A stretch of 45,469 nt of DNA from a virus, in the UHGV virus genome UHGV-0206691; one strand, 5' to 3'. Within the stretch, counting starts at the first letter, position 1, and the number at the start of each line of letters is the position of its first letter. The position numbers and the translations under genes are program-made. Shown here piece by piece: positions 1,718 through 43,213 of the stretch. The notes under the pieces are model-generated. The model did no database searches and was not told the origin of the DNA. It saw nothing but the letters and a program-made list of their open reading frames with translations.

Positions 1718-1829
1718 CTTCTGTCTCCAGTTCATCGTAAACACGTTCATTGTCGCCATCGCATACGCAGCAAACTCGCAACTCAGCGTAAAGCTGTTCC
1801 ATTTTCTCAACCGCCAGGTACTTATACAT
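1701..1829 (-). CDS. small protein (42 aa) with CCVC motif
   Basis: own reading, below track size cut-off: ATG preceded by GAGAGGAGAGACAGAAG; stop overlaps next start. Confidence 0.3.
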   Translation of the reverse strand: MYKYLAVEKMEQLYAELRVCCVCDGDNERVYDELETEDVPGM

Positions 1830-1860
1830 CTTCTGTCTCTCCTCTCGTTTGTGTAAATGA

Positions 1861-1889
1861 ATAGTAGTCTATTCTATCACAGTGTGCAA
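1861..1889 (-). promoter_or_regulatory. early promoter, TTGCAC-N17-TACTAT class
   Basis: minus strand reads TTGCAC, 17-nt spacer, TACTAT, then TCA; AATAG-N4-CTATT inverted repeat overlaps -10; lies just upstream of gene 1701..1829. Confidence 0.5.
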
Positions 1890-1896
1890 GTAAATT

Positions 1897-2073
1897 TTAT
1901 TGGTGTTGCGAATTTACGTGATGGCACTTTCTACACTTATGCGTAACCGAGTCACCAAGGTACGAGATTAACTGTACCTGCTCGCTTCCGCAGTTGGTGC
2001 ATTTACGGTAACTACGGGCCGCGGCATCCCGCTTTTCAACAAACCCCATAAGTTTCTCAGTGAACGTTTTCAT
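1897..2073 (-). CDS. small zinc-ribbon protein (58 aa, CxxC...CxxC)
   Basis: own reading: MKTFTEKLMGF...CTNCGSEQ...HKCRKCHH; GGAGAT upstream of ATG. Confidence 0.35.
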   Translation of the reverse strand: MKTFTEKLMGFVEKRDAAARSYRKCTNCGSEQVQLISYLGDSVTHKCRKCHHVNSQHQ

Positions 2074-2197
2074 TGTTGCATCTCCTGCAATAGTCGCTTC
2101 GATTGTTGCGTTTGGTGAAATAGAACAAAAATGAGAAAAATGATACGCTGCTGTGTAGCAGCGTAAGTCACTCAGTAAAATCCCAAACTATTGAACA

Positions 2198-2383
2198 TCA
2201 CACTTCCGGCGGCTCAGGTAACGGCATCCAGTGCGTTATATCACCGCGATATAAACTCTTTGCTGGCCCCCAGTAGCCATCTGTATTAACACGCATAACC
2301 TCACAGCCATCAAAACCATCAGTTACAAGAACGTATTCATAAGGTTCCGGCATCCGCTCACTACACTTAATCCACTCTCCCAT
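2198..2383 (-). CDS. DUF551-like phage protein
   Basis: ORF track; C-terminal HWMPLPEPP motif, recalled as a DUF551 hallmark. Confidence 0.5.
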   Translation of the reverse strand: MGEWIKCSERMPEPYEYVLVTDGFDGCEVMRVNTDGYWGPAKSLYRGDITHWMPLPEPPEV

Positions 2384-2392
2384 AAATCACCC

Positions 2393-2530
2393 CTTATTCG
2401 CCACAGCTTGCACACCAGCTTTCCACGCCCGCCACGCGAGACGGGTCTTAACGTTCAGGTACTCTTTCTTCGGACCCTTGTTAACAGGCAGACCCTCGAC
2501 GACGGCCCACCGCTCGAATGCTTCTCTCAT
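2393..2530 (-). CDS. small hypothetical protein (45 aa)
   Basis: own reading MREAFERWAVVEGLP...; stop overlaps start of DUF551 gene. Confidence 0.3.
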
Positions 2531-2533
2531 AAC

Positions 2534-2755
2534 TTAGTCCTCACTTAATGCCTGAGTCGCTGCCAGGATGATAGCTGATAAACATTGCGCGCAAGGCTCT
2601 TGCCTGAATCCGTTTTCTACAGCATATAAGGCGTGTTGGGCATCCCGGAACAGCCATTCACCGTACGATGGGGTAGCTCGGCACCACGTTTCTACTTTAC
2701 TCGTCGGCAATTTAACCCCATCCAGATGGTCTACCTTTATTATGTGTTTTCTCAT
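2534..2755 (-). CDS. hypothetical protein (73 aa)
   Basis: ORF track 2534..2785 trimmed to ATG (MRKHIIKV) preceded by GGGGG. Confidence 0.4.
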   Translation of the reverse strand: MRKHIIKVDHLDGVKLPTSKVETWCRATPSYGEWLFRDAQHALYAVENGFRQEPCAQCLSAIILAATQALSED

Positions 2756-2815
2756 ACCAACCCCCACAACGCGTGCACCACACATACGGCGCTGACAATT
2801 AAAATGAACAGGTAA

Positions 2816-3055
2816 TTATTCACGGCAACCTCCCTCAGAGTCGTCGGCACGAGCATCATGATTCGATGCCGTTGTGAATAACGCTAGCCATCTCCAGGTA
2901 TAAACACACATACGTCCTTCATATACATCCTCATCAGTTACCCTGTAATCATCGCCATCATCTGAGGTAATGCACCCATCGCTACTTAGCACATAACTTT
3001 TTCCTTCTGTGAAGTAATCACATAGACTGGTTATACAAATTAATTCTTCCATCAC
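2816..3055 (-). CDS. hypothetical acidic Cys-containing protein
   Basis: ORF track; co-directional in early operon. Confidence 0.4.
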   Translation of the reverse strand: MMEELICITSLCDYFTEGKSYVLSSDGCITSDDGDDYRVTDEDVYEGRMCVYTWRWLALFTTASNHDARADDSEGGCRE

Positions 3056-3237
3056 TTCACCCCTTTGAATTTAAAATTGTTGCCGATGAGTTCTAAATCC
3101 CACTTGCGGAGTAACCCTTTACCAAACCCGGATACGCTATTAACCTCAACGAAACCGAACCACATTAACTTTGATTCTGTTACCGTAAATAAATTGCCTG
3201 TAAATTTATCCCTAACCAACTGACCCTTCTTAAACAT
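3052..3237 (-). CDS. hypothetical protein (61 aa), first gene of leftward early operon
   Basis: ORF track; AGGAG upstream; promoter 3272..3300 upstream. Confidence 0.45.
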   Translation of the reverse strand: MFKKGQLVRDKFTGNLFTVTESKLMWFGFVEVNSVSGFGKGLLRKWDLELIGNNFKFKGVK

Positions 3238-3271
3238 AACCCTAACTCCTCTGTCTCGTTCCGATAAGTGA

Positions 3272-3300
3272 ATAGTATCCTATTATGTTGGGGTGTGCAA
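3272..3300 (-). promoter_or_regulatory. early promoter, TTGCAC-N17-TACTAT class
   Basis: minus strand reads cTTGCACaccccaacataataggaTACTATtcactta; near-identical to the promoters at 26855, 36202 and 38070. Confidence 0.55.
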
Positions 3301-3746
3301 GAGATTCATTGAAAATGGTTACGTTGCCGTTGTGGATTCTTTCGTTTCTTGGAAGAGTACGCAACGCAGTGGGTGGGCGTTAGCCCACCCCAGCGGAGTG
3401 AAGTACTCTCAACAATGCTCACGGCAACTATAGAAACTTTTAATTATCAGATACTTAAGAGATATGCTGCCGATGAGAATAGAGCTTGCCCATGGCAACC
3501 GGAGATACTAAGGAAGGAAAGTTACGATAATTCATATGTTCAGTAATCTGCCGCTTAACACTTCGCTTGCGCTTTGGCGCAGCTGCGTTTCAAGCGGGTA
3601 TTACAAGGTGAACAGGAATCAAAGTAACTAAGATATAGAAGCACCTTAAACGAAGATTTTCATAATGTCAATAGGTGCAATTATGTTTGATTTCCCATTA
3701 TTCGCAATGTATGCTTGGTTCGTTAACTGATAATGAGGGTTTGAGA

Positions 3747-3917
3747 ATGACGCAGAATGAAGTAGCGGAGCGTATCGGGGTTACTCGCCGCACACTGAAT
3801 AACTGGTTAAAGAGTGGGAAGTTCCCGGATTGCTGTATTCGCATTATGGGCCGCCGTCAGCCAGGTACGTTTGACCCGGCGAAAGTGGAAGCGTGGATTA
3901 AGGAGAACGTGAAATGA
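3747..3917 (+). CDS. AlpA/excisionase-like HTH DNA-binding protein
   Basis: ORF track 3675..3917 trimmed to ATG (MTQNEVAERIGVTRRTLNNWLKSGKFP) with GAGGG upstream; HTH_17-like pattern. Confidence 0.55.
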   Translation: MTQNEVAERIGVTRRTLNNWLKSGKFPDCCIRIMGRRQPGTFDPAKVEAWIKENVK

Positions 3918-4147
3918 CCGAGTTTCAGTCGCGTGTATTTACGGCGGTCGTTTCATTAACACGTAAAAAAGGGTCTTGCAGTGTTATGGACTTGCGCCGT
4001 AGTTATTTTAGGTACTATAGTTCCGCCATTATTGAAGGGTCGTTGAGAGTGCTGGTTAAATCTGGTGTCGTGAAAAATGCTGGCGGGAAATATAGTGCTG
4101 TTGCTGAAGTTCGCGGAATGGCCGCTACTTTAGAAGACCTGGAATAA
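3914..4147 (+). CDS. hypothetical protein (77 aa)
   Basis: ORF track; start overlaps upstream stop (ATGA). Confidence 0.45.
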   Translation: MTEFQSRVFTAVVSLTRKKGSCSVMDLRRSYFRYYSSAIIEGSLRVLVKSGVVKNAGGKYSAVAEVRGMAATLEDLE

Positions 4148-4204
4148 AAGAAAGCCCCAGCGTTAGAGCGCCGAGGCCAAATTACTTGCTGAAGGAAATA
4201 CAAC

Positions 4205-6472
4205 ATGTCCGATGTAATTTTATCCTACTCGTGGTCACGTCGCAACGCGCGAGCAGAGAAAAAGGATATAAACGTCAGAACCACACACACGGCAACACTG
4301 GACGACCTGAAAGAGTTAATCCAGCCGCTCGATGCCGTTCGCGACGGAATTAATCCGAAGACTGCGCCAGGGTATATCACCGCCGCGTGTGACCAAACCC
4401 ACAGCACCGTAAAAGACCCGGAAACTGGCGACTTTAAGCAAGCGCGTAAAGGCTTTTTCTATCGCTGTGATGCGTCTGTAAGCAAATCGTCGCTGGCGTA
4501 TCTGGACTTCGACAGCGCAACACCGGAAGAGTATCAGGAAGCGGTGCGCCTGGTTAAGCGCAGCCGCCAGGCGATGTGCCTCTATACCACGGCATCCCAT
4601 ACCGACGAGTCGCCGCGCTTTCGCGTCGTCATGCCACTGGCCCGTCCGGTTGAGGGTGGTGACATCATCCGTGTTCGTCATGGGTTGCTGGAACACTTCT
4701 TCAAAGGCATGGGTGCGGACCGCAGCGGGTTCACTCTGTCCCAGCCGATGTACCTGCCGCCGGTTGGCTCTCAGGTTATCTGGTCGCGCCGCAACGACCT
4801 GATTGACCCGGAAGAACTGCTGGAAGGCATTCCCGCCGTTGACGTTAGCAGCGCATCGGATTACCAGATACCGGAAGAACTGCGCACTGCGTTTACTGAT
4901 GCGTTCGAAGCCCTGGCGTTCGAGTACGGCGGTATCATGACACCACGCGGCCTTAAGATGCCAGCTACACCAGAACACGCAGAAAACTACAGCGACCCGA
5001 CGCCGCGCCCGGACGACTTCCTGCTGTGCTTCCCGCGGGAGGGGTACGAAGCGCCGAACGTAACCATGATTCACGACACCGACATTACGGCAACCGAAGG
5101 CATGTCGCCGAAAGAGGTGTGGAAGTATGCGTGTGATGCGACCGGGCTGCCGTTCAGTGAAGTCGCTGAGGCTATAGGATGGGGTGCACGTGAATCTGTT
5201 TCATGCAGCCTCGACGACCTGGAAGACGACGAGGATCCAGGGGAGGACGAGCTGCCGGAGCCGGTAAAGGCTGACTTCGTCGTTGAAGGGTACATGCCGT
5301 CGGATTGTATCTGGGACATTGTCGGGGAGTCCGGCACGTACAAATCATTCTATACGCTGGGGGTGATGTACCTGAGCGCCGCCGGATACCGGTTTGCAGG
5401 CGCTGACACACAGCGTTGCCACCACTTCTATATTGACGGTGAAGGTGGCGCAGCTACACGCACCCGTATTGACGCGCTCGCGGCTAAATACGGCGTGGAA
5501 GGTAAAGATTATGTACACGTCATCGATATGGGTGAAGTAGGCAAACTTAAAAGCCTGATTAAGTTAATGCGCGAAACTGCTGGCGAAGAGCCAATCGGCA
5601 TGGTCGCGTTTGACACCCTCAACCAGACCCTGGCACTGACTATTGATAAGTTCGACGAGAACAGCTCATCAACGGCAATCGGCATGGGTAAAGTTATCGC
5701 CATCCTGAAAGAAGTGCGTGACGCGACTAAAGCCGCGGTAGGCGTTGTCCATCATACGCCGAAAGGCGGAAAGAAAGCCCGTGGCAGCGGGGCGTTGTAT
5801 GCTGGTGTCGACGTGGAACTGACAATCGAACGTGCCACCGACCGACAGATAAACGTATACCACTCGAAATTTAAGCACGGGCCTCAGCAGAAAACTGTCG
5901 GTATGGTGCTTGAGTCGGTACAGTTCCGCGAAGCGCCGCCGCCGAAAGAATACCGCGCGGTTGAGTTCCTGGGTAACACCGAGGAATACGGCGCAATCGT
6001 AAACCTGGACCTGCCAGAACCACACAAGGCGCTTGTACTGATGCCGTGGGGCTTTGAGCCGTTCAAGACTGACGAGGAGAAAGAGCGGGAAGAAGGGCTG
6101 ACAAAGGAAGGTAAAGAAAACGTACGTAAAACCGTAGAGAATGCCGTCAACAGTTCAGAGGCCACGATACTGGCAGCGTTTGAACTGGCAGAAGGAACCT
6201 ACAACGGCAACGAAGGTATCACAGTAGCCGCAGCGAATAAGCTCGCACAGTCAGACCCCAACGCAAAGGCGTTTAACTCCAAAGAAGCCATAGAACGCGG
6301 AAAGATTAAGAAAATGGTTGAGGCCGGGTATCTTGTACCGGGAACAGATGAAAACAATCAGATAATCCAGGGCCGTTACAGACTGAACACCCGAATAACG
6401 GATAACAAGATTCCGAAGACAATATACGAACCGAATGAAATGCTGGCGGTGACAGAGGAGGATTTAGAATGA
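4205..6472 (+). CDS. bifunctional primase-helicase (AEP primase-polymerase N-terminus, RecA-like/DnaB-like ATPase C-terminus)
   Basis: ORF track; YLDFD catalytic-type motif in N-terminal half; Walker A-like GESGTYKS and Walker B-like VAFD; good RBS GAAGGAAA. Confidence 0.75.
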   Translation: MSDVILSYSWSRRNARAEKKDINVRTTHTATLDDLKELIQPLDAVRDGINPKTAPGYITAACDQTHSTVKDPETGDFKQARKGFFYRCDASVSKSSLAYLDFDSATPEEYQEAVRLVKRSRQAMCLYTTASHTDESPRFRVVMPLARPVEGGDIIRVRHGLLEHFFKGMGADRSGFTLSQPMYLPPVGSQVIWSRRNDLIDPEELLEGIPAVDVSSASDYQIPEELRTAFTDAFEALAFEYGGIMTPRGLKMPATPEHAENYSDPTPRPDDFLLCFPREGYEAPNVTMIHDTDITATEGMSPKEVWKYACDATGLPFSEVAEAIGWGARESVSCSLDDLEDDEDPGEDELPEPVKADFVVEGYMPSDCIWDIVGESGTYKSFYTLGVMYLSAAGYRFAGADTQRCHHFYIDGEGGAATRTRIDALAAKYGVEGKDYVHVIDMGEVGKLKSLIKLMRETAGEEPIGMVAFDTLNQTLALTIDKFDENSSSTAIGMGKVIAILKEVRDATKAAVGVVHHTPKGGKKARGSGALYAGVDVELTIERATDRQINVYHSKFKHGPQQKTVGMVLESVQFREAPPPKEYRAVEFLGNTEEYGAIVNLDLPEPHKALVLMPWGFEPFKTDEEKEREEGLTKEGKENVRKTVENAVNSSEATILAAFELAEGTYNGNEGITVAAANKLAQSDPNAKAFNSKEAIERGKIKKMVEAGYLVPGTDENNQIIQGRYRLNTRITDNKIPKTIYEPNEMLAVTEEDLE

Positions 6473-6783
6473 ATATTTACGATTTTATAGATAACCCGTT
6501 TAAAGCAGTGAAGGCGGGGTACCGCCCGTCATACCTGACATGTGTTTCCGCGGTAAGCGGCCACTGGTGGACTTTTTGCGTGTACACAGCAGGGATTTTT
6601 GCGGAGTTTAAAGACGTTTTAGATATGACACTGGCGGAGATTATAAAGTGCCTTTTCAAGTTGATTATCGCGATAGCTATTGTGGTAAGTTTTCCTGTAA
6701 GTGTGTGGTTTCTTGCCTGGATTCAGTACCTGAACGTGCAGCACACGATTAAGAATTTGGAAGAACTCGATAAGTTGCAATAA
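6469..6783 (+). CDS. small membrane protein
   Basis: ORF track; ATGA overlap with primase-helicase; hydrophobic segments IAIAIVVSFPVSVWFLAWI. Confidence 0.45.
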   Translation: MNIYDFIDNPFKAVKAGYRPSYLTCVSAVSGHWWTFCVYTAGIFAEFKDVLDMTLAEIIKCLFKLIIAIAIVVSFPVSVWFLAWIQYLNVQHTIKNLEELDKLQ

Positions 6784-6786
6784 AAA

Positions 6787-6808
6787 GAAAGGGGCATTAA
6801 GCCCCTTC
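6787..6808. terminator. hairpin terminator between convergent genes
   Basis: aaaGGGGCattaaGCCCCttc stem-loop; overlaps the last codons of the XRE gene. Confidence 0.5.
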
Positions 6809-10781: not shown

Positions 10782-11060
10782 ATGGCAGCGGAACTTAAGA
10801 GATACAGACGCATCACATACTGCAAATTTTGTAAGGCAGAAGGAAAAAAAGTTAGAGCAATTTGGATGACTAAATACCCTCCAGCTTACGGTGTACGAGA
10901 CTGGTATAAACACTATGCATGCGAGGAGCATAAACATTTAATAGAAGACACAGACCCAGACAGGACTTGGGCAGAAATCATAGAACGCGGTAAAAACAAG
11001 AAACAAGAACGCGACGACTATCTCACAGAAGCAGACTATCAGACGTGGTACAGACTATGA
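10782..11060 (+). CDS. hypothetical zinc-binding protein (CxxC...C..H)
   Basis: ORF track; YCKFCKAEGKK ... YACEEHKH. Confidence 0.45.
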   Translation: MAAELKRYRRITYCKFCKAEGKKVRAIWMTKYPPAYGVRDWYKHYACEEHKHLIEDTDPDRTWAEIIERGKNKKQERDDYLTEADYQTWYRL

Positions 11061-13309
11061 ACACATTGCTTTACTTAGACTTTGAAACATTCTCCGAAGC
11101 CGATTTAAAGAAAGTCGGCTCCTACGCTTACGCCGAACACCCGTCAACCGAAGTGCTAATCTGTACCTATGCTTTTGACGACGAGCCTGTGCAGGTATGG
11201 GATTGCACCGACGGCAGCGACATGCCGGGCGATTTGCACCGCGCACTGCGCCGCCTGGTTAAGCCGAACAGCCGCATCAAGATGGTGTGGCACAACGGTG
11301 GACTTTTCGACAGGCTCATCATGAAGCATTGCTGGGGCTTTGATATTCCGGTAAGCAACACCATTGATACGATGATTTGGGCGTTTCGTCACGCGCTTCC
11401 GGGTTCACTCGATGCGCTGTGTGAAGTGCTGGGCGTATCCGCGGACAACGCGAAAGATAAACGCGGCAAGGCGCTGATTCAGCGTTTTTCTAAACCTACT
11501 CCGAAGAACTACAAAATCCGCCGTTACACTGCTGAAACTCACCCGGACGAGTGGGCACTGTTTATCAAGTACGCCGTGAGCGACATCACCGCGATGCGTG
11601 AAGTCTTTCATAAGCTGCCGCGATGGGGTAACTCCGAGTTCGAAGACCGTGTACTGGAACTGGACCAGTTAATCAATGACCGTGGGTTTAAGGTTGACGT
11701 TGCACTGGCAGAAGCCGCGATTGAAGCCGTGGAGAAACACAAAGCGCAGTTACAGGAAGAGGCCCAACGCAAATACGGCGGATCGCTTACTGGGAAGGAC
11801 TTTCTGCCTATTCTGCGTGAACTGGCACCTGCGCACCGCATCCACAACGCACAGAAGTCTACGCTTAACGACCTGCTGGCGGACGATGATTTACCAGACG
11901 ACGCACGCACGATTATCGAAATGCGCCTCGGGGCCGCGTCTACAGCGTCAACGAAATATAACCCGCTACTGTTGGGCCGCTCGTCAGACGACCGCCGTCG
12001 CGGTTGCATTCAGTACGGCGGAGCCAAGCGTACATTACGATTTGCCGGTAAAGGCTTTCAGCCGCAGAACCTGGCGCGCGGGTACTATCACGACGACCCG
12101 AAGAATAAAAAGAAAAAAGTACGTTATGACTGGATGTCAGAGAAGGACTGGTGGAGAGTAACACACCCATTGTCCTACGGAATCGACCTGTTGTTTAAAG
12201 GCCGTGCGCACCGCCGTTTTGATGTAGCCAAACTGACAGCATCGACGGTTCGTAGCTGCATCATACCGGAAGCCGGGTATAAGTTTGTCGTCGCCGATTA
12301 CTCTAACGTTGAAGGCCGTGGTTTGGCGTGGCTGGCTGGAGAAGAAACCGCGCTCGATACGTTCCGCGCCGGGCTGGATATTTACTGCGTAACCGCGGGT
12401 AAGATGTTCGGAATGGACCCCGATTACATTCTCGAAAGCCGTAGTGACCTACGCCAGATTGGTAAAGCCTGTGAATTGGGCCTCGGCTATGCTGGAGGTG
12501 TTGGTGCTTTCGTTCAGTTTGCTAAAAACCTCGGCTTAAACCTTGTTGATATGGCAAAAACAATGGATGGGACTTTCCCCGACCACATCTGGGCGGCTAC
12601 TGCACGGGGCTATGAGTGGGCGCGTATACAGGAGGCAAAGCGACCGCCGCGTCCCGGTGAAAAGGACGACAGACCGTCGTATATTCTTGATAAGAAAGTG
12701 TGGCGTACCTGTGACGCTATCAAGCGCATGTGGCGCGAGTCTCACCCGGAAACCGTAGCGTTCTGGCGAGATATTGAAGACGCAGCTATGGCGGCTATCC
12801 GCAATCCGGGCAAAGAGTTCACCGCAGGACCACGCGGCGTTAAGTTTTCGCGTAACGTAGAGACAGACAACAACGGCAACAAAGTCGCTGGCTGGTGGTT
12901 GCGCATGACGTTGCCATCGGGTCGCGTTATGTCATACCCTGGCGTCGGGTTAAGCGTGTCGAAAGAGACAGACGAAGATGGAAAGGTGTCTACTAACGTA
13001 CGCATCAAGTACCAGGGGGAGAACCAGTTAACCCGTCAGTGGGGCTTCCAGTACACCTACTCCGGTAAACTGGTGGAAAACTGCACTCAGGCGCTGTGCC
13101 GTGATTTGCTGGCTAATGCCCTGCTTAACGTCGAAGCAAACGGTTACCCGATTGTACTTCATGTCCACGATGAGATTATCTGCGAGACACCAGATACCCC
13201 CGAGTACACGGTGGCTGAACTTGAGCGGTTGATGTGCGAATTACCGGAATGGGCCGAGGGGTTCCCTCTTGTAGCGGAAGGCGCGGAGATGAAGCGCTAT
13301 GCTAAGTAA
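11045..13309 (+). CDS. family-A DNA polymerase with 3'-5' exonuclease domain
   Basis: ORF track; N-terminal exo motif LYLDFETFS; palm motifs DYSNVEGRGLAWLAGE, GKACELGLGYAGGVGAF, VLHVHDEIICE. Confidence 0.9.
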   Translation: MVQTMNTLLYLDFETFSEADLKKVGSYAYAEHPSTEVLICTYAFDDEPVQVWDCTDGSDMPGDLHRALRRLVKPNSRIKMVWHNGGLFDRLIMKHCWGFDIPVSNTIDTMIWAFRHALPGSLDALCEVLGVSADNAKDKRGKALIQRFSKPTPKNYKIRRYTAETHPDEWALFIKYAVSDITAMREVFHKLPRWGNSEFEDRVLELDQLINDRGFKVDVALAEAAIEAVEKHKAQLQEEAQRKYGGSLTGKDFLPILRELAPAHRIHNAQKSTLNDLLADDDLPDDARTIIEMRLGAASTASTKYNPLLLGRSSDDRRRGCIQYGGAKRTLRFAGKGFQPQNLARGYYHDDPKNKKKKVRYDWMSEKDWWRVTHPLSYGIDLLFKGRAHRRFDVAKLTASTVRSCIIPEAGYKFVVADYSNVEGRGLAWLAGEETALDTFRAGLDIYCVTAGKMFGMDPDYILESRSDLRQIGKACELGLGYAGGVGAFVQFAKNLGLNLVDMAKTMDGTFPDHIWAATARGYEWARIQEAKRPPRPGEKDDRPSYILDKKVWRTCDAIKRMWRESHPETVAFWRDIEDAAMAAIRNPGKEFTAGPRGVKFSRNVETDNNGNKVAGWWLRMTLPSGRVMSYPGVGLSVSKETDEDGKVSTNVRIKYQGENQLTRQWGFQYTYSGKLVENCTQALCRDLLANALLNVEANGYPIVLHVHDEIICETPDTPEYTVAELERLMCELPEWAEGFPLVAEGAEMKRYAK

Positions 13310-13430: not shown

Positions 13431-13512
13431 AAATATACTGGTTCTATGAAGAAGACTGCCGAATCTGTCCGCGCTGCGGGATTGAACATACGAAACGGGA
13501 GGGGTGCATATT

Positions 13513-13800
13513 ATGAGTACGCCTGAGGGCAAGATTCAGAAATACGCAAAAGACAGATTCGAGGCCCTGGGGGGCCTCGTACGAAAATTGTCGTACGAAA
13601 ATAGAGTGGGGGCCCCCGACCTGCTGGTAATCCTCCCCGGCGGCATCATCTGGTTCGTAGAGGTTAAGAAAGACGGAAGCACGAAGCCTGACCCGCATCA
13701 GTTACGGGAGCACGAGCGGATGCGTAAACGCGGCGCGAATGTTTTTGTCGTTGGTTCGTTTAAACAGGTTGACGACCTAATAGCGAACTATTATAGTTAG
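13513..13800 (+). CDS. VRR-NUC domain nuclease
   Basis: ORF track 13504..13800 trimmed to ATG after GGGAGGGG; PDLLVILPGGIIWFVEVKK PD-(D/E)XK core. Confidence 0.65.
   Translation: MSTPEGKIQKYAKDRFEALGGLVRKLSYENRVGAPDLLVILPGGIIWFVEVKKDGSTKPDPHQLREHERMRKRGANVFVVGSFKQVDDLIANYYS
13769..13797 (+). promoter_or_regulatory. sigma70-type promoter TTGACG-N17-TATAGT with AATAG-N4-CTATT inverted repeat in spacer
   Basis: ttgacgACCTAATAGCGAACTATtatagt inside the 3' end of the VRR-NUC gene, upstream of gene 13831. Confidence 0.55.
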
Positions 13801-14822: not shown

Positions 14823-16239
14823 GTTTCGAAGGCGCGAGTACCAGAAGCTCATGACTTCGTTCATGTTGCGGCACCATCGCTGCAATATCTGGGCGAGCAT
14901 GGGCGCCGGGAAGACCGGCAGCGTACTGTGGGCATTAAACCGACTGTTCCGCAATGGGCAACTTAATGACGACGACCGCGTGTTGATCCTTGCCCCGTTG
15001 CGCGTTGCATCAGGTACATGGCCCGCAGAACAAGATAAATGGAAATTTCCATGTCTTCGTGTCGTCGATGCAACTGGTTCGGAGAAGCGCCGCATAGCGG
15101 CGCTGGAATCAGACGCTAACGTGGTGTGCACAAACTACGAAGTTATCGAGTGGCTTATTGACTACTACGGCAAAGACGACTGGCCTTTTACGGTTATCGT
15201 CGCCGACGAAAGCACGAAGCTGAAATCGTTTCGCAGCCGTTCAGGCGGTAGCAAGAGGGCCAAGGCGCTAAGCAAAGTGGCATTCGGTAGGGTTAAGCGT
15301 TTCATTAACCTGACTGGCACACCATCCCCAAACGGCCTCAAAGACTTGTGGGGCCAGAACTGGTTTATCGACGCTGGTGAGCGCCTCGGTTCTTCATACA
15401 CAGCATTCACCGACCGATGGTTTAACTCAGTACAGAAAGGCAAATCCGCGATGGCGCGTGAGTATCATGCGCGCCCGGGTGCGGATAATGAAATTCACCA
15501 GAAGATGAAGGACATTAGTCTCACGATTGACGCCGCCGAGTGGTTCGGTTGCGAAGCGCCGATTATCGTGCCGGTTGAAATCGGTCTGCCGAAGAAAGCG
15601 CGTCAGGCGTACATTGATATGGAGGAGAAGTTATTTGCGGAACTGGAGAGCGGAGAAGTCGAAGCGGCTAACGCGGCAGCGAAGACATCTAAGTGTTTGC
15701 AGATTGCTTCTGGTGCCGTGTATGTGTCCGGGCCAGATGGCGAAGCAACCAAAGACTGGGAGAAAGTGCATGACACTAAACTGGATGCGCTGGAGTCCAT
15801 TGTTGAGGAGTTACAGGGTGCACCGTTACTGGTGGCGTATCAGTTCAAGCACGAACTGGAGCGCATCCTTAAGCGATTCCCGCAGGCGCAGGCGTTTGCA
15901 AAAGGTGCTAAGGGTAATAAGCAGATGGAAGCGTGGAACCGTGGTGAGATACCTATGCTCCTGATACACCCAGCTTCTGCGGGCCACGGGCTGTCGCTAC
16001 AACATGGCGGACACCATATGGCATTTATGAGTCAGGGGTGGAACCTGGAACATTATTTGCAGGTTATCGAGCGTATAGGTCCGGTAAGGCAGATGCAATC
16101 TGGATACAAACGGTCTGTATTCATTTATCAAATAATAGCCCGAGACACTCTTGATGAAGTTGTCGCCGCTCGTACAGACGAGAAAAGGTCTGTACAAGAC
16201 GAACTACTTAATTATATGAAGAGAAGGAGTAAGAAATGA
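14815..16239 (+). CDS. SNF2-family ATP-dependent helicase
   Basis: ORF track; Walker A GAGKTG, DExx box IVADESTKLK, motif III NLTGTPSPN, helicase-C region near C-terminus. Confidence 0.8.
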   Translation: MSKFRRREYQKLMTSFMLRHHRCNIWASMGAGKTGSVLWALNRLFRNGQLNDDDRVLILAPLRVASGTWPAEQDKWKFPCLRVVDATGSEKRRIAALESDANVVCTNYEVIEWLIDYYGKDDWPFTVIVADESTKLKSFRSRSGGSKRAKALSKVAFGRVKRFINLTGTPSPNGLKDLWGQNWFIDAGERLGSSYTAFTDRWFNSVQKGKSAMAREYHARPGADNEIHQKMKDISLTIDAAEWFGCEAPIIVPVEIGLPKKARQAYIDMEEKLFAELESGEVEAANAAAKTSKCLQIASGAVYVSGPDGEATKDWEKVHDTKLDALESIVEELQGAPLLVAYQFKHELERILKRFPQAQAFAKGAKGNKQMEAWNRGEIPMLLIHPASAGHGLSLQHGGHHMAFMSQGWNLEHYLQVIERIGPVRQMQSGYKRSVFIYQIIARDTLDEVVAARTDEKRSVQDELLNYMKRRSKK

Positions 16240-16721
16240 GCAAGGTATCTTACGACCCTGAAACCGGTATTTTCACATGGGTCGAAACAAAACGTAGGGG
16301 TTTTGTTGGAAAGAACGCTGGATGTTTTTGTCCTCGGGACGGGTACATTCGTATACGAATAAACGGAAAACTAGAACTAGCACACCGGTTAGCATGGGAT
16401 ATATGCAATCCATATAACCCACTTACCCCACAGGAGCAGATATACCACATCAATCACATTCGAACCGATAACCGAATATGCAACCTGCGGAAAGTTACCA
16501 ACACTGAAAATAGCCGCAACGCATCGATAGGGGTGAACAATACTAGCGGCGCTCTTGGTGTATGGCGTGAAAAGAGAAGAAACAAATGGGTAGCAGAAAT
16601 AAAGGTAGACAGAAGAAAAATACATCTTGGCCAGTTTGATGATTTTGACGAAGCTGTTGCCGTGCGTAAAGCCGCGGAAGCTGCTTACGGATTTCATGAA
16701 AACCACGGAGAAACAACGTGA
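16236..16721 (+). CDS. HNH homing endonuclease with AP2-like DNA-binding domain
   Basis: ORF track; HRLAWD...IYHINHIRTDNRICNLRKVTNTEN HNH core; C-terminal WREKRRNKWVAEIKVDRRKIHLGQFDDFDEAVAVRKAAE AP2-like. Confidence 0.8.
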   Translation: MSKVSYDPETGIFTWVETKRRGFVGKNAGCFCPRDGYIRIRINGKLELAHRLAWDICNPYNPLTPQEQIYHINHIRTDNRICNLRKVTNTENSRNASIGVNNTSGALGVWREKRRNKWVAEIKVDRRKIHLGQFDDFDEAVAVRKAAEAAYGFHENHGETT

Positions 16722-26854: not shown

Positions 26855-26883
26855 CTTGCGCGCCCCAATATAATAGGGTACTA
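26855..26883 (+). promoter_or_regulatory. early-class promoter TTGCGC-N17-TACTAT driving accessory cassette
   Basis: cTTGCGCgccccaatataatagggTACTATtcactta; matches promoters at 3272 (minus), 36202 and 38070. Confidence 0.55.
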
Positions 26884-26914: not shown

Positions 26915-27106
26915 ATGTCCAGTTTACCAGTTTCCTTAATTCTGTTTGCACTGCTAGCCTATTTTGCGCCTTTCCTGGTTGCATATTTCCGCGACCATAA
27001 AGCGAAGTTAGCGATATTCATGGCCAACCTGTTTCTCGGTTGGATTCTTCTGCCGTGGGTATTTATTTTAATCTGGGCTTGCAACTCGAATGTCAAAGAG
27101 AAGTGA
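26915..27106 (+). CDS. Imm-like superinfection-immunity family small membrane protein (63 aa, 2 TM)
   Basis: ORF track 26900..27106 trimmed to ATG with GAAGGGG RBS; RDHKAKLAIFMANLFLGWILLPWVFILIWA resembles recalled Imm-family motif. Confidence 0.5.
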   Translation: MSSLPVSLILFALLAYFAPFLVAYFRDHKAKLAIFMANLFLGWILLPWVFILIWACNSNVKEK

Positions 27107-27143
27107 GCTAGTATAGGACAAATCCTAAGCACGAGGAATAAGC

Positions 27144-28274
27144 ATGGCCCGGAAGAAAATAACCGACGAACAGTTGCAGGAAGAATTGAACGCCGGTATG
27201 AAGAATATCGACATCGCCCGTAAATACGGCATCTCGGACCGCGTTATTCGCATCCGTAAAGCGAAGCTGGCTAAGAAAGGCGTAGGCCACGGGCGCGACG
27301 TTAGCCACCTTGTACCAGATGGCTACAAGATTAAAGGTACATCGTCGCTGGTTGATGAGTTCGGCAACACTAAGCTGCAATGGGTTAAGACCGACACCGA
27401 TGCTGAACGTCAGGTCGAGTTGATGAAAGCCGTAATCGAAGGCATGAAGTCAGAGATTACACCAGTTGCGCCTGTTAAAGCGACTCGAGCCAAACGCGAC
27501 GATAAACTACTCAATCTTTACACGGTATCTGATTTTCATCTCGGTATGCTGGCATGGGCTGACGAGAGCGGCGACGACTGGGATATGAAAATCGCGGAAG
27601 ACATGTTCTCTCGATGGTTCGACGCGGCGTTTCAGAAAGCACCGGATGCAGGAACAGGAGTTATTAACCTGCTTGGCGACCTTGCACACTTCGATAGTCT
27701 GGATGCCGTTACACCCGCGAGCGGTCATATTCTTGACGCGGACACGCGCTACCAGAAACTGGTCCGCTACATGATTCGTATGGTTCGCCGTGTTGTCGAT
27801 ATGGCACTTGTTAAGCATAAGAATGTTCGCTTGCTTATCGTGCAAGGGAACCACGACGAAAGCGGAATGATTTGGTTAGCTGAGATGTTCAGTACACTAT
27901 ACGACAACGAGCCGCGCGTGTTAGTAGATACGTCGCCGGATGTTTACAAGATGGTGCAACACGGCAAAACGACGTTGTTCTTTACACACGGACATAAATG
28001 CCGGTTTGAGGTGGTAGAACCCATTATGATCGCTAAGTTCAGAAAAGCATTTGGCGAAAGCGAGTACAGTTATGCGCATGTCGGACATCTCCACCACCAA
28101 AAGATTGTAGAAAGTAGGAATATGGTAGTGGAGCAGCATCGCACTCTCGCGGCGAAAGATGCATATGCTTCTCGCGGCGGGTGGATGTCAGGTCGGAGTG
28201 CAAACGTAATTACTTATAGCGCCGAATATGGAGAGGTCGCACGTTTAACTATTTCACCGGAGATGTTGGGATGA
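27144..28274 (+). CDS. HTH-fused calcineurin-like metallophosphoesterase
   Basis: ORF track; N-terminal HTH (IDIARKYGISDRVIRIRKAKL); metallophosphoesterase motifs SDFHLG, GDLAHFD, GNHDE, THGHK, GHLHH in canonical order. Confidence 0.75.
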   Translation: MARKKITDEQLQEELNAGMKNIDIARKYGISDRVIRIRKAKLAKKGVGHGRDVSHLVPDGYKIKGTSSLVDEFGNTKLQWVKTDTDAERQVELMKAVIEGMKSEITPVAPVKATRAKRDDKLLNLYTVSDFHLGMLAWADESGDDWDMKIAEDMFSRWFDAAFQKAPDAGTGVINLLGDLAHFDSLDAVTPASGHILDADTRYQKLVRYMIRMVRRVVDMALVKHKNVRLLIVQGNHDESGMIWLAEMFSTLYDNEPRVLVDTSPDVYKMVQHGKTTLFFTHGHKCRFEVVEPIMIAKFRKAFGESEYSYAHVGHLHHQKIVESRNMVVEQHRTLAAKDAYASRGGWMSGRSANVITYSAEYGEVARLTISPEMLG

Positions 28275-28504
28275 TTAAAGCCCTGTGGATTTTCATCGTA
28301 ATGCCGCTTTTGATGCTGTTTGTGCTAGCGGCTGCGGTGCTGTTTCTAGCGGTAGCCTTGTTCTTTATTACTATGGACCCGTCCGTATTCTTTAGCTTGT
28401 ACAAAGAGGTTACACAAGCGGACCTGACAGGCATACGTCTTCTGTACGTAGTCGCCGTCGTAGTTTCTGCGGTTATCATTCTGGCAGAGGAAAGTGATTT
28501 ATGA
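28271..28504 (+). CDS. small membrane protein (77 aa)
   Basis: ORF track; ATGA overlap with upstream gene; hydrophobic segments. Confidence 0.5.
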   Translation: MIKALWIFIVMPLLMLFVLAAAVLFLAVALFFITMDPSVFFSLYKEVTQADLTGIRLLYVVAVVVSAVIILAEESDL

Positions 28505-28731
28505 CTTCAAAATACAACCGCACAATGACAAACACTCACGGTAGCACTATGACAGTAGATGTTTACGATGTGCTACGTGCCTTCGACATCCGTGACCCTG
28601 CGCTACAACATGCATTGAAGAAACTATTGTGCATGGGCTTGCGGGGGCACAAGGACACCGGAACAGACTTAGCGGAAGCAATTGAAAGCCTGGAGAAGTT
28701 ACGGGAGTATCGAAGTAACATTGATGAGTGA
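28501..28731 (+). CDS. hypothetical protein (76 aa)
   Basis: ORF track; ATGA overlap with upstream gene; terminator follows. Confidence 0.5.
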   Translation: MTSKYNRTMTNTHGSTMTVDVYDVLRAFDIRDPALQHALKKLLCMGLRGHKDTGTDLAEAIESLEKLREYRSNIDE

Positions 28732-28734
28732 TAA

Positions 28735-28762
28735 AAAGGCCCCGAAAGGGGCCTTAGTTTTA
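28735..28762. terminator. bidirectional hairpin terminator closing accessory cassette
   Basis: aaaaGGCCCCgaaaGGGGCCttagtttta. Confidence 0.6.
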
Positions 28763-41785: not shown

Positions 41786-41881
41786 AGAATCCCCTTGCAT
41801 ATGCGTCTGACCATCAGAGCGCATCAGACGCGCCCTACGCGTCTAAAGGGATTATATAAGTGGAATGGGTGGGATGTACAG

Positions 41882-41905
41882 AAAAGCCCTCCGTAGAGGG
41901 CTTGT
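41882..41905 (-). terminator. hairpin terminator upstream of terS
   Basis: aaaAGCCCTCcgtaGAGGGCTtgtat; minus strand has T-run after stem. Confidence 0.45.
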
Positions 41906-42009
41906 ATCAGTTATATAGGCCGTGTCGTGATGCTCTTTTGCCATCGCCGCCGTAATGGTCATTAGCTACCGCGATAGCCCATGCGTTCTGGATGATTAGT
42001 AGCCTCATT

Positions 42010-42183
42010 TTAAGAATCTCAGCACGGCGTCCGCGATACCGGACGCCACTAGCCCGAAAAACATAGGCCACCAGATATATCTGGGCAGATTGGTAAATGT
42101 TTCTGGCTTAGTCCAGAAAGCCATTAAAAACGCGAACCAAAACACCATATAACTAATGTTGCTAAGTAATTCTAAAATATTCA
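42010..42183 (-). CDS. small membrane protein (about 57 aa)
   Basis: own reading MNILELLSNISYMVFWFAFLMAFWTK...; AGAGGAGAG RBS; ATGA overlap with upstream stop. Confidence 0.3.
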
Positions 42184-42417
42184 TTCCCCACTCTCCTCTT
42201 TAGCAATGCGCTGCTCAGTTTTAGTGATACCACGGCGCGTGAATAGCACCGGGCTTGTCTTAACGTGCGTCATCAGACGGTTGTTATAAATTACGTGGCG
42301 CTCGCAATCAACGTCTTTGCTGTACTTCGCAATCGTCATTTCGCAGATGCCGGTTTGTCGGCAAGTCTCAGACATACTTCCATACTCTTCAATCAGTTTA
42401 GGGATGCTGGTAATCAA
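42181..42417 (-). CDS. hypothetical protein, possible HTH
   Basis: ORF track; TTG start; my reading of the 3' end disagrees with the track by 1 nt. Confidence 0.35.
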   Translation of the reverse strand: MITSIPKLIEEYGSMSETCRQTGICEMTIAKYSKDVDCERHVIYNNRLMTHVKTSPVLFTRRGITKTEQRIAKEESGE

Positions 42418-42767
42418 TTTGTATCTCCTTTAGTGACAGTAATGTCTTTCTTAGTGATGTCTACAAAAATAGTGTGCGCGCCGCTTGTGTAAATGTGACA
42501 CCGCGGGACCAGGCTTTCTGTGGTCCATAAAAACTCGTGCGGACGGCCGGCGCGCACTCTCCTGATTTCAAACTTGCCATATTTAATGATAACCCCGTAG
42601 TTATGTGTCGCAGAGGGGTTGCAGAATTTGCTATAAACAGCTTCTTATATCGCGGATTCAATGTCTGTGAATCTCGCGGCAACAGTACGGGCCATTAGTA
42701 CCTACCCCACAGAAACCCAACCAATAGTCCAATGAAGTAACTAAGACCAACCAGACTAATAACAGCC

Positions 42768-43028
42768 TCAAGCCCCATACCCGATACCCCACATAACTAA
42801 CATCCCAACCGCCACACCAATCAGAATAGATACTGTTGTATTCGTCCACGCCCGCTGGCTACGCAAAGTCTCGGCGTTCTCCAGAATGTCGCGAACACGC
42901 GTTAAGTGTTCAACTTCCAGTTTCGCAGCGATTAGTTCCTGTGTCGCTTTTGAATATTTACCGTTCATCTTATCCAGCGCCTTCTTAAGGTCTTTGTTGT
43001 TCTTCTTGAGTTGTTCAATCTGTTCCAT
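42768..43028 (-). CDS. coiled-coil protein with C-terminal TM anchor (86 aa)
   Basis: ORF track; N-terminal charged coiled-coil then SILIGVAVGMLVMWGIGYG. Confidence 0.4.
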   Translation of the reverse strand: MEQIEQLKKNNKDLKKALDKMNGKYSKATQELIAAKLEVEHLTRVRDILENAETLRSQRAWTNTTVSILIGVAVGMLVMWGIGYGA

Positions 43029-43030
43029 AA

Positions 43031-43213
43031 CTACCCCACTATCTCATCACCAAGCCACGCCGTTTCTCGTATATCGTCGACCACACACGCGGCGTGCTCA
43101 CGGCTAATTGCAAAAATGTAGAAGCTGAACTTCTTCCCGTCGGCGTCGATGTGGTTAACCGAGTAAGGTTTCCACAGGACACCATCGATAACTACTGGCT
43201 CAGGCACTTTCAT
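43031..43213 (-). CDS. hypothetical protein (about 60 aa)
   Basis: ORF track 43031..43261 trimmed to ATG (MKVPEPVVIDG) with ATGA overlap. Confidence 0.35.
   Translation of the reverse strand: MKVPEPVVIDGVLWKPYSVNHIDADGKKFSFYIFAISREHAACVVDDIRETAWLGDEIVG

Follow-up and report, generated by a model that had tools for sequence, protein, structure and literature searches.

A metallophosphoesterase gene with an N-terminal helix-turn-helix

The viral genome UHGV-0206691 was analysed as one stretch of 45,469 nucleotides (the window), in which positions 27144–28274 of the + strand encode a 376-residue protein that couples an N-terminal helix-turn-helix (HTH) to a calcineurin-like metallophosphoesterase domain, structurally closest to DNA nucleases. 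The open reading frame (ORF) list and the translation agree on a coding sequence that runs from ATG to TGA, while the opposite strand over the same interval contains stops throughout and no ORF of similar size. The surrounding 4 kb are 87–92% identical to Kagunavirus (K1G-like, Guernseyvirinae) coliphages, and the window is a Kagunavirus genome. The features of the gene are as follows, with conservation taken from an alignment of 91 diverse homologues that are 33–50% identical to the protein.

27133–27137, + strand: Shine-Dalgarno sequence GAGGA, read from the sequence, 6 nt upstream of the ATG
27144–28274, + strand: coding sequence of the HTH-metallophosphoesterase, a member of PHROG 704 (E 4.5e-166; 98.4% identity to an annotated protein)
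27165–27275, + strand: three-helix HTH of the LuxR/GerE/σ70 region 4 type, residues 8–44
27324–27452, + strand: family-specific linker module made of a β-hairpin (residues 61–85) and a helix (residues 87–103), with near-invariant G74 and W80
27498–28271, + strand: metallophosphoesterase catalytic domain, residues 119–376
27528–27545, + strand: motif I, SDFHLG, residues 129–134; D130 and H132 invariant, G134 94%
27675–27695, + strand: motif II, GDLAHFD, residues 178–184; G178 and D179 invariant, H182 in 88 of 91, D184 in 84 of 91
27846–27860, + strand: motif III, GNHDE, residues 235–239; N236 and H237 invariant
27984–27998, + strand: motif IV, THGHK, residues 281–285; H282 invariant
28083–28097, + strand: motif V, GHLHH, residues 314–318; G314 and H317 invariant, H315 96%

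An earlier note, made from the letters of this DNA, had placed an HTH at about residues 1–60. An AlphaFold2 model locates it at residues 8–44, and the HTH string IDIARKYGISDRVIRIRKAKL corresponds to residues 22–42 of the protein. Alone, the query matches a Pfam HTH model below threshold (GerE, 0.012); many PHROG 704 members individually match HTH_1, HTH_8, Sigma70_r4_2 (1.5e-9) and GerE, and the N-terminal profile matches LuxR/GerE/NarL structures and, by sequence, RhlR, GerE and NarL. The AlphaFold2 model, built from the family alignment, has a mean predicted local distance difference test (pLDDT) of 93.5 and a predicted template modelling score of 0.82, with pLDDT values of 96–99 in the catalytic domain and 71–82 in the inter-domain linkers. 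Its HTH consists of three helices that superpose on the DNA-binding domain of Tn3 resolvase, on NarL-type regulators and on σ28 region 4. The N-terminal HTH is genuine and common to the whole family, and the only extra domain in longer homologues is a second HTH. Residues 1–118 are basic, with an isoelectric point of 9.5–10, compared with 6.0 for the catalytic domain.

The superfamily motif set (DxH, GDxx[DH], GNH[DE], H, GHxH) is present in full and in order. All five strings given in the earlier note, and their order, therefore stand; its canonical GD-x-x-D form of motif II does not, as the motif is GD-x-x-H. Nine residues are invariant in all 91 homologues (D130, H132, G178, D179, N236, H237, H282, G314 and H317), and conservation is at least 90% for H182, D184, D238 and H315 as well as for the family-specific G74, W80, T190, L197, D198, D200, R202 and R258. 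The binuclear metal centre is complete, comprising D130, H132, D179, N236, H282, H315 and H317, with H237 in position to act as general acid and with H182 supplying the motif II histidine of the nuclease type. The divalent metal of the enzyme is probably Mn2+.

Motifs I and II resemble those of nucleases. The motif I pattern of the family, DxH[LIV]G, matches SbcD (SDWHLG) and Mre11, and the GDxxH form of motif II is also found in Thermotoga maritima Mre11 (GDLLH) and in the Pseudomonas putida MPE. In the latter, DNA cleavage needs His81, at the third position past the metal-binding Asp78 (D+3), whereas hydrolysis of bis-p-nitrophenyl phosphate does not (PMC7826289); H182 has the same D+3 spacing.

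Distribution of the family and its structural neighbours

The match to PHROG 704 ('DNA repair exonuclease') extends over residues 4–375 of the protein and positions 2–389 of the 390-position profile. Using tblastn, we found matches to the protein in 2,040 of 50,697 phage records, 1,959 of them with at least 80% protein coverage; roughly 4% of the phage genomes on deposit thus contain the family. The homologues come from phages of Escherichia, Klebsiella, Salmonella, Vibrio and Shigella, from Rhizobium phage 16-3, from Roseobacter phage RDJL Phi 1 and from others, and those of full length include T1-like, Jersey/K1G-like, Klebsiella and Vibrio phages. Members such as K1G gp22 (YP_009168802), Bas74_0022, Shigella phage SH6 gp63 and Rhizobium phage 16-3 p044 belong to the same full-length family and have the same order of HTH, linker and metallophosphoesterase, with the same genome position within Kagunavirus and no difference of substance. 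A search of the protein library clustered at 50% gave 4,680 matching clusters with E ≤ 1e-3, of which 1,153 reached E ≤ 1e-30, and almost all had lengths of 370–420 residues; the cluster counts and the uniform length thus identify the HTH-metallophosphoesterase architecture as a large catalogued phage family. The usual annotations are 'DNA repair exonuclease', a homology-based label for which we found no underlying experiment, and 'calcineurin-like phosphoesterase', while the closest GenBank protein, from Escherichia phage P AB-2017, is called a 'calcineurin-like phosphoesterase superfamily domain protein'. Hence the fusion, which the earlier note did not recognise from characterised phage proteins, is routinely annotated; as a sequence finding the gene is already catalogued and ordinary.

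Within its phage group the gene is as widespread as the portal gene. At 80% identity or more, 288 records carry the HTH-metallophosphoesterase (81 + 31 + 176) and 287 the portal (77 + 21 + 189); at 60% or more the numbers are 462 and 493, respectively. A gene that is near-universal in the group and diverges at about the rate of the portal is a core gene rather than a sporadic counter-defence gene. The accessory cassette in which the earlier note placed it is accordingly a poor description: the small flanking genes swap like morons and the phosphoesterase gene does not.

Pfam alone is insufficient to assign the protein to its superfamily. The query matches Metallophos_2 (3.4e-5) and Metallophos (1.8e-3) below threshold, with PF00149/PF12850 scores of 24.3 against a gathering threshold of 27 and 19.2 against 21.5, and some homologues exceed the threshold of 21.5 (P0133, 25.1; P0145, 27.0). 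Membership rests instead on motif invariance and on the fold, a β-sandwich αβ arrangement that matches solved members of the calcineurin-like superfamily, and the family is a divergent clade. Together with the full-length PHROG 704 match, these two lines of evidence confirm, far above chance level, the fusion of a calcineurin-like metallophosphoesterase to an HTH. NCBIfam assigned no family, its FixJ HTH (0.0037) and PdeM (0.28) matches both being far under their cut-offs, and no SbcD or Mre11 model matched in NCBIfam or Pfam. A search of PDB chain sequences with the single protein gave a best E of 0.46, to an unrelated ATPase, and the same search with the family profile gave marginal matches only, to Mre11 and MPE (E 0.15–0.6). 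None of the PADLOC defence models matched at E ≤ 1.

The structure search was led by the PolD DP1 proofreading exonuclease (15.9), T. maritima Mre11 (15.2) and Staphylococcus aureus SbcD (15.0), followed by LpxH (13.8), MJ0936 (13.6), further Mre11/SbcD entries (12.6–13.6), GpdQ (12.1), the cyclic nucleoside monophosphate (cNMP) phosphodiesterase Rv0805 (12.0), P. putida MPE (9.3) and the PPP phosphatases (at most 9.6). Foldseek ranked Mre11 (2e-8), DP1 (3e-8) and Rv0805 (1e-7) highest. The family is thus a distinct clade that in structure comes nearest to DNA nucleases, with a margin that is consistent but modest.

The Mre11/SbcD and DP1 enzymes differ from the phage protein in architecture and partners. 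The Mre11/SbcD enzymes (T. maritima Mre11, 3qg5; S. aureus SbcD, 7dog; E. coli SbcD, 6s6v) share with it the nuclease-type DxHLG, GDxxH and GNHD motifs but lack the N-terminal HTH and hairpin module, and the phage protein for its part has neither a Rad50/SbcC partner nor membership of their sequence family. DP1, a 3'–5' proofreading exonuclease (5ihe), is the small subunit of PolD, has an OB fold and acts bound to the DP2 polymerase (PMC11795197). In the phage protein the HTH replaces the OB fold and the identity is 12%; moreover, in T1-like phages that carry the gene, annotation shows no polymerase within the examined region, unlike the DP1–DP2 pairing. The P. putida MPE (PdeM), a single-stranded DNA endonuclease (6nvo), is monomeric, has no Rad50 partner and has a GDxxH motif II like that of the phage protein. 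As to the ligase-associated PdeM/MPE endonucleases, the protein falls below the TIGR04123 model cut-off and lies outside an Lhr-ligase operon context.

Two mycobacteriophage metallophosphoesterases offer a further comparison. A10ZJ24 gp48 is expressed early, has phosphodiesterase activity, is needed against host defences and degrades linear, plasmid and genomic double-stranded DNA (PMC12287305). Unlike the phage protein studied here, A10ZJ24 gp48 and Bxb1 gp47 are about 255 residues long and have no HTH. In hhalign, our family profile gave a probability of 8.7% against the single Bxb1 gp47 sequence and 4.3% against a profile of 30 gp47-family sequences, aligning motifs III–V only. Motif I of the gp47 family (Bxb1 locus 6021–6788, − strand) is D-T-Q, with an invariant Gln12, and not D-x-H. 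This motif and the profile probabilities of 4–9% indicate that gp47 and gp48 form a different family, related at the superfamily level only. For enzymes with reported nuclease activity, D-T-Q at the metal site is unusual.

The same data bear on two further readings. The earlier note had proposed a phosphodiesterase that degrades host immune messengers. In the form considered here, the enzyme would act on cyclic mono-, di- or oligonucleotides of CBASS, Pycsar, Thoeris or type III CRISPR, thereby disarming signalling-based defence. We regard this as very unlikely. Nucleases outrank phosphodiesterases in both structure searches, and the class III cNMP phosphodiesterases (E. coli CpdA, Mycobacterium tuberculosis Rv0805), which rank under them and have no DNA-binding domain, are the closest relatives neither in structure nor in sequence. 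Motif II has His at D+3, compared with GDLAQ in CpdA and Asp in Rv0805; we take the Asp66 of Rv0805, a D66A mutant of which is among the Foldseek entries, to occupy the corresponding position. A conserved and sometimes duplicated HTH has no obvious use in a small-molecule enzyme, the gene is as ubiquitous and conserved as the portal, unlike the patchy anti-defence genes, and a literature search found no calcineurin-fold phage enzyme that degrades immune nucleotides. Were this reading nevertheless correct, for which we see little chance, the protein would be the first calcineurin-fold phage phosphodiesterase that degrades such messengers, a core gene in T1-like and Jersey/K1G-like phages, with the HTH in a regulatory or localising role.

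Least probable of all, and barely credible in our view, is a λ-PP/NinI-like phosphatase that acts on Ser/Thr (or Tyr) residues of proteins. Such enzymes belong to the same superfamily, and a few GenBank records annotate the protein in this way, one of them as a 'putative serine/threonine protein phosphatase'; however, the protein lacks the GDxVDRG form of motif II that marks the PPP/λ-phosphatases, and these are not its closest fold. In Rhizobium phage 16-3 (locus 3246–5737) the homologue p044 occurs together with a NinI-like Ser/Thr phosphatase, p047, encoded three genes downstream, and the presence of both in one phage implies that the two types of metallophosphoesterase are not redundant.

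Genomic context and neighbouring genes

The gene is the second in a short + strand operon that faces the − strand tail genes. Its neighbours are the following.

26915–27106, + strand: Imm-like superinfection-immunity membrane protein, first gene of the operon (PF14373, 1.6e-12; phrog_1039, 1.9e-23)
28271–28504, + strand: hydrophobic 77-residue ORF that overlaps the phosphoesterase stop codon (ATGA); an insertion absent from K1G and Bas74
28501–28731, + strand: 76-residue ORF that overlaps the preceding stop codon and resembles the C-terminal ~70 residues of PHROG 2452
28736–28755, no strand assigned: GC-rich hairpin terminator between the convergent + strand cassette and a − strand tail gene

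The Imm-like ORF is listed from 26900, with a likely start at 26915. The gene resembles T4 Imm, and its low GC content (0.425, genome 0.507) suggests a moron acquired separately from the adjoining core gene; the phosphoesterase gene, at 0.498, has the GC content of the genome, against 0.43–0.47 for the small flanking genes. Both junctions 3' of the phosphoesterase gene are overlapping ATGA start and stop codons. The 77-residue ORF has no PHROG or Pfam match. The 76-residue ORF, which adjoins the phosphoesterase gene directly in Bas74, matches positions 150–220 of 235 in phrog_2452 and 172–237 of 246 in phrog_17613 ('ATPase'), and could be either a C-terminal domain that stands alone or a remnant; derivation from the P-loop protein of K1G (gp20) was rejected, as the two proved unrelated in the comparison. 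Promoter and terminator scans returned hits at chance frequency, among which only the terminator at 28736–28755 is convincing by its position. A perfect TATAAT at 26869–26874 lacks a −35 element.

Downstream of the gene we compared window positions 28275–28732 with K1G locus 5277–6313 and Bas74 locus 6274–6504. Homology with K1G continues up to the phosphoesterase stop codon and restarts at the terminator. Between these points K1G encodes a PNKP-type HAD 3'-phosphatase (HAD_PNKP, 6.7e-20; 161 residues) and a P-loop protein (184 residues), which form a split polynucleotide kinase (PNK), Bas74 has the 76-residue ORF only, and the window adds a 226-bp insertion that carries the 77-residue ORF. 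These differing contents show that the downstream slot is variable and the phosphoesterase gene constant.

The PNK-type phosphatase and the P-loop neighbour, which follow the gene in the same operon of K1G, are nucleic-acid end-healing functions. They raise the possibility that our protein is a phosphoesterase comparable to the metallophosphoesterase domain of bacterial Pnkp which, with this pair, removes 2',3'-cyclic phosphates or 3'-phosphates at breaks in RNA or DNA. Many relatives of K1G also have the HAD phosphatase followed by a P-loop protein annotated as a kinase, and the fold suits phosphomonoesterase or cyclic phosphodiesterase chemistry. The pair is dispensable, however, being absent from the window and from Bas74, it does not adjoin the gene in T1-like, Vibrio, 16-3 or RDJL phages, and an adjoining HAD 3'-phosphatase would make a second 3'-phosphatase redundant. 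We therefore consider an end-healing role unlikely.

A primary role as a transcription factor appears equally improbable. Here the HTH would bind specific promoters of the phage or the host, in autoregulation or as a late-gene switch, and the enzyme domain would be separate or sensing, so that the protein moonlights. This class of HTH is typical of sequence-specific regulators, there is a weak match to PHROG 836 ('late transcriptional activator', 9.3e-4), and Bxb1 gp47, which functions in excision, sets a precedent for phage metallophosphoesterases that also have a role other than catalysis (PMC11795197). Against it, the catalytic residues are invariant and catalysis must therefore be under selection; in addition, we found upstream of the cassette no convincing operator-like repeat, only weak imperfect repeats of 13–14 nt. 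Regulation of transcription and a nuclease function can coexist.

Across phage groups (T1-like SH6, a Vibrio phage, Rhizobium 16-3 and RDJL Phi 1) no neighbours of the gene are conserved. A Rad50/SbcC-like ATPase is absent among the large ORFs of the window and from the neighbourhoods examined in relatives. The large ORFs encode a helicase-primase, an exonuclease, a Gp2.5-like single-stranded DNA-binding protein, a DNA polymerase, a methyltransferase, a helicase, an HNH endonuclease, and head, tail and lysis proteins.

Elsewhere in the window, the DNA polymerase ORF (754 residues, 11045–13309, + strand) matches PHROG 93 ('endonuclease') internally at residues 472–566, and a 98-residue ORF at 13504–13800 (+ strand) matches another part of PHROG 93 and a Holliday-junction-resolvase PHROG; together they could represent an inserted or split endonuclease module. 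The helicase gene is overlapped at its end by the HNH endonuclease gene (16236–16721, + strand; phrog_99, 2.2e-62), whose product is probably a homing endonuclease. Another such enzyme, mobE-like, is encoded at a different site in K1G, and the window has no counterpart to it in the compared stretch. Two regions of 1.4–2.4 kb, 1810–4205 and 41824–43200, contain no ORF of at least 90 residues and are presumably occupied by groups of tiny early genes or by regulatory sequence.

A proposed role in phage DNA metabolism

Taken as a whole, the evidence makes it somewhat more likely than not that the protein is a stand-alone, metal-dependent DNA endo- or exonuclease of the Mre11/SbcD/DP1 neighbourhood, tethered to DNA through its HTH and with a part in the metabolism of phage DNA. 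The end-healing functions encoded after the gene in K1G are in keeping with this. The DP1, Mre11 and SbcD folds, the Mre11-like motifs I and II and the basic N-terminal 118 residues fit the second suggestion of the earlier note, a DNA-targeting nuclease guided by the HTH. In this proposal the HTH, carried on flexible linkers, would tether the catalytic domain to duplex DNA, and the enzyme would act without a Rad50/SbcC ATPase, because none is encoded. The status of a core gene would place its role in the metabolism of phage DNA, where it may process ends of DNA or the structured intermediates that arise as DNA replicates and recombines; breakdown of host DNA, alone or beside end processing, is another candidate role. 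Both activities, the processing of ends and intermediates and the breakdown of host DNA, have been reported for stand-alone mycobacteriophage metallophosphoesterases. The class of substrate, the function of the HTH as a tether and the biological role are all matters that we infer, and a Rad50-independent, HTH-targeted Mre11-like nuclease that degrades the host chromosome in these phages is an alternative form of the proposal.

Several observations weigh against a nuclease. Motif II of E. coli SbcD is GDVFD, with Asp in place of His, and the histidine is consequently suggestive of nucleases but not diagnostic. The family profile gave an hhalign probability of 2.8% against E. coli SbcD, and all the values against SbcD, CpdA and the gp47 family lie at 2–9%, so that sequence profiles cannot rank these relatives and support placement at the superfamily level only. 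With neighbourhoods unconserved between phage groups, genomic context is of little help. The HTH may serve autoregulation instead of substrate binding, and our literature search found no experimental study of the PHROG 704 family and no biochemical or genetic data on it.

The family spans T1-like (Drexlerviridae) and Jersey/K1G-like (Guernseyvirinae) coliphages and Salmonella phages, which are widely used in therapy and biocontrol, and in the Guernseyvirinae group it is a core gene whose database name is a homology label only. Establishing the function of a Rad50-independent, HTH-tethered Mre11/DP1-like enzyme would fill this annotation gap, with the processing of replication intermediates, the degradation of host DNA and the processing of ends as its candidate roles.

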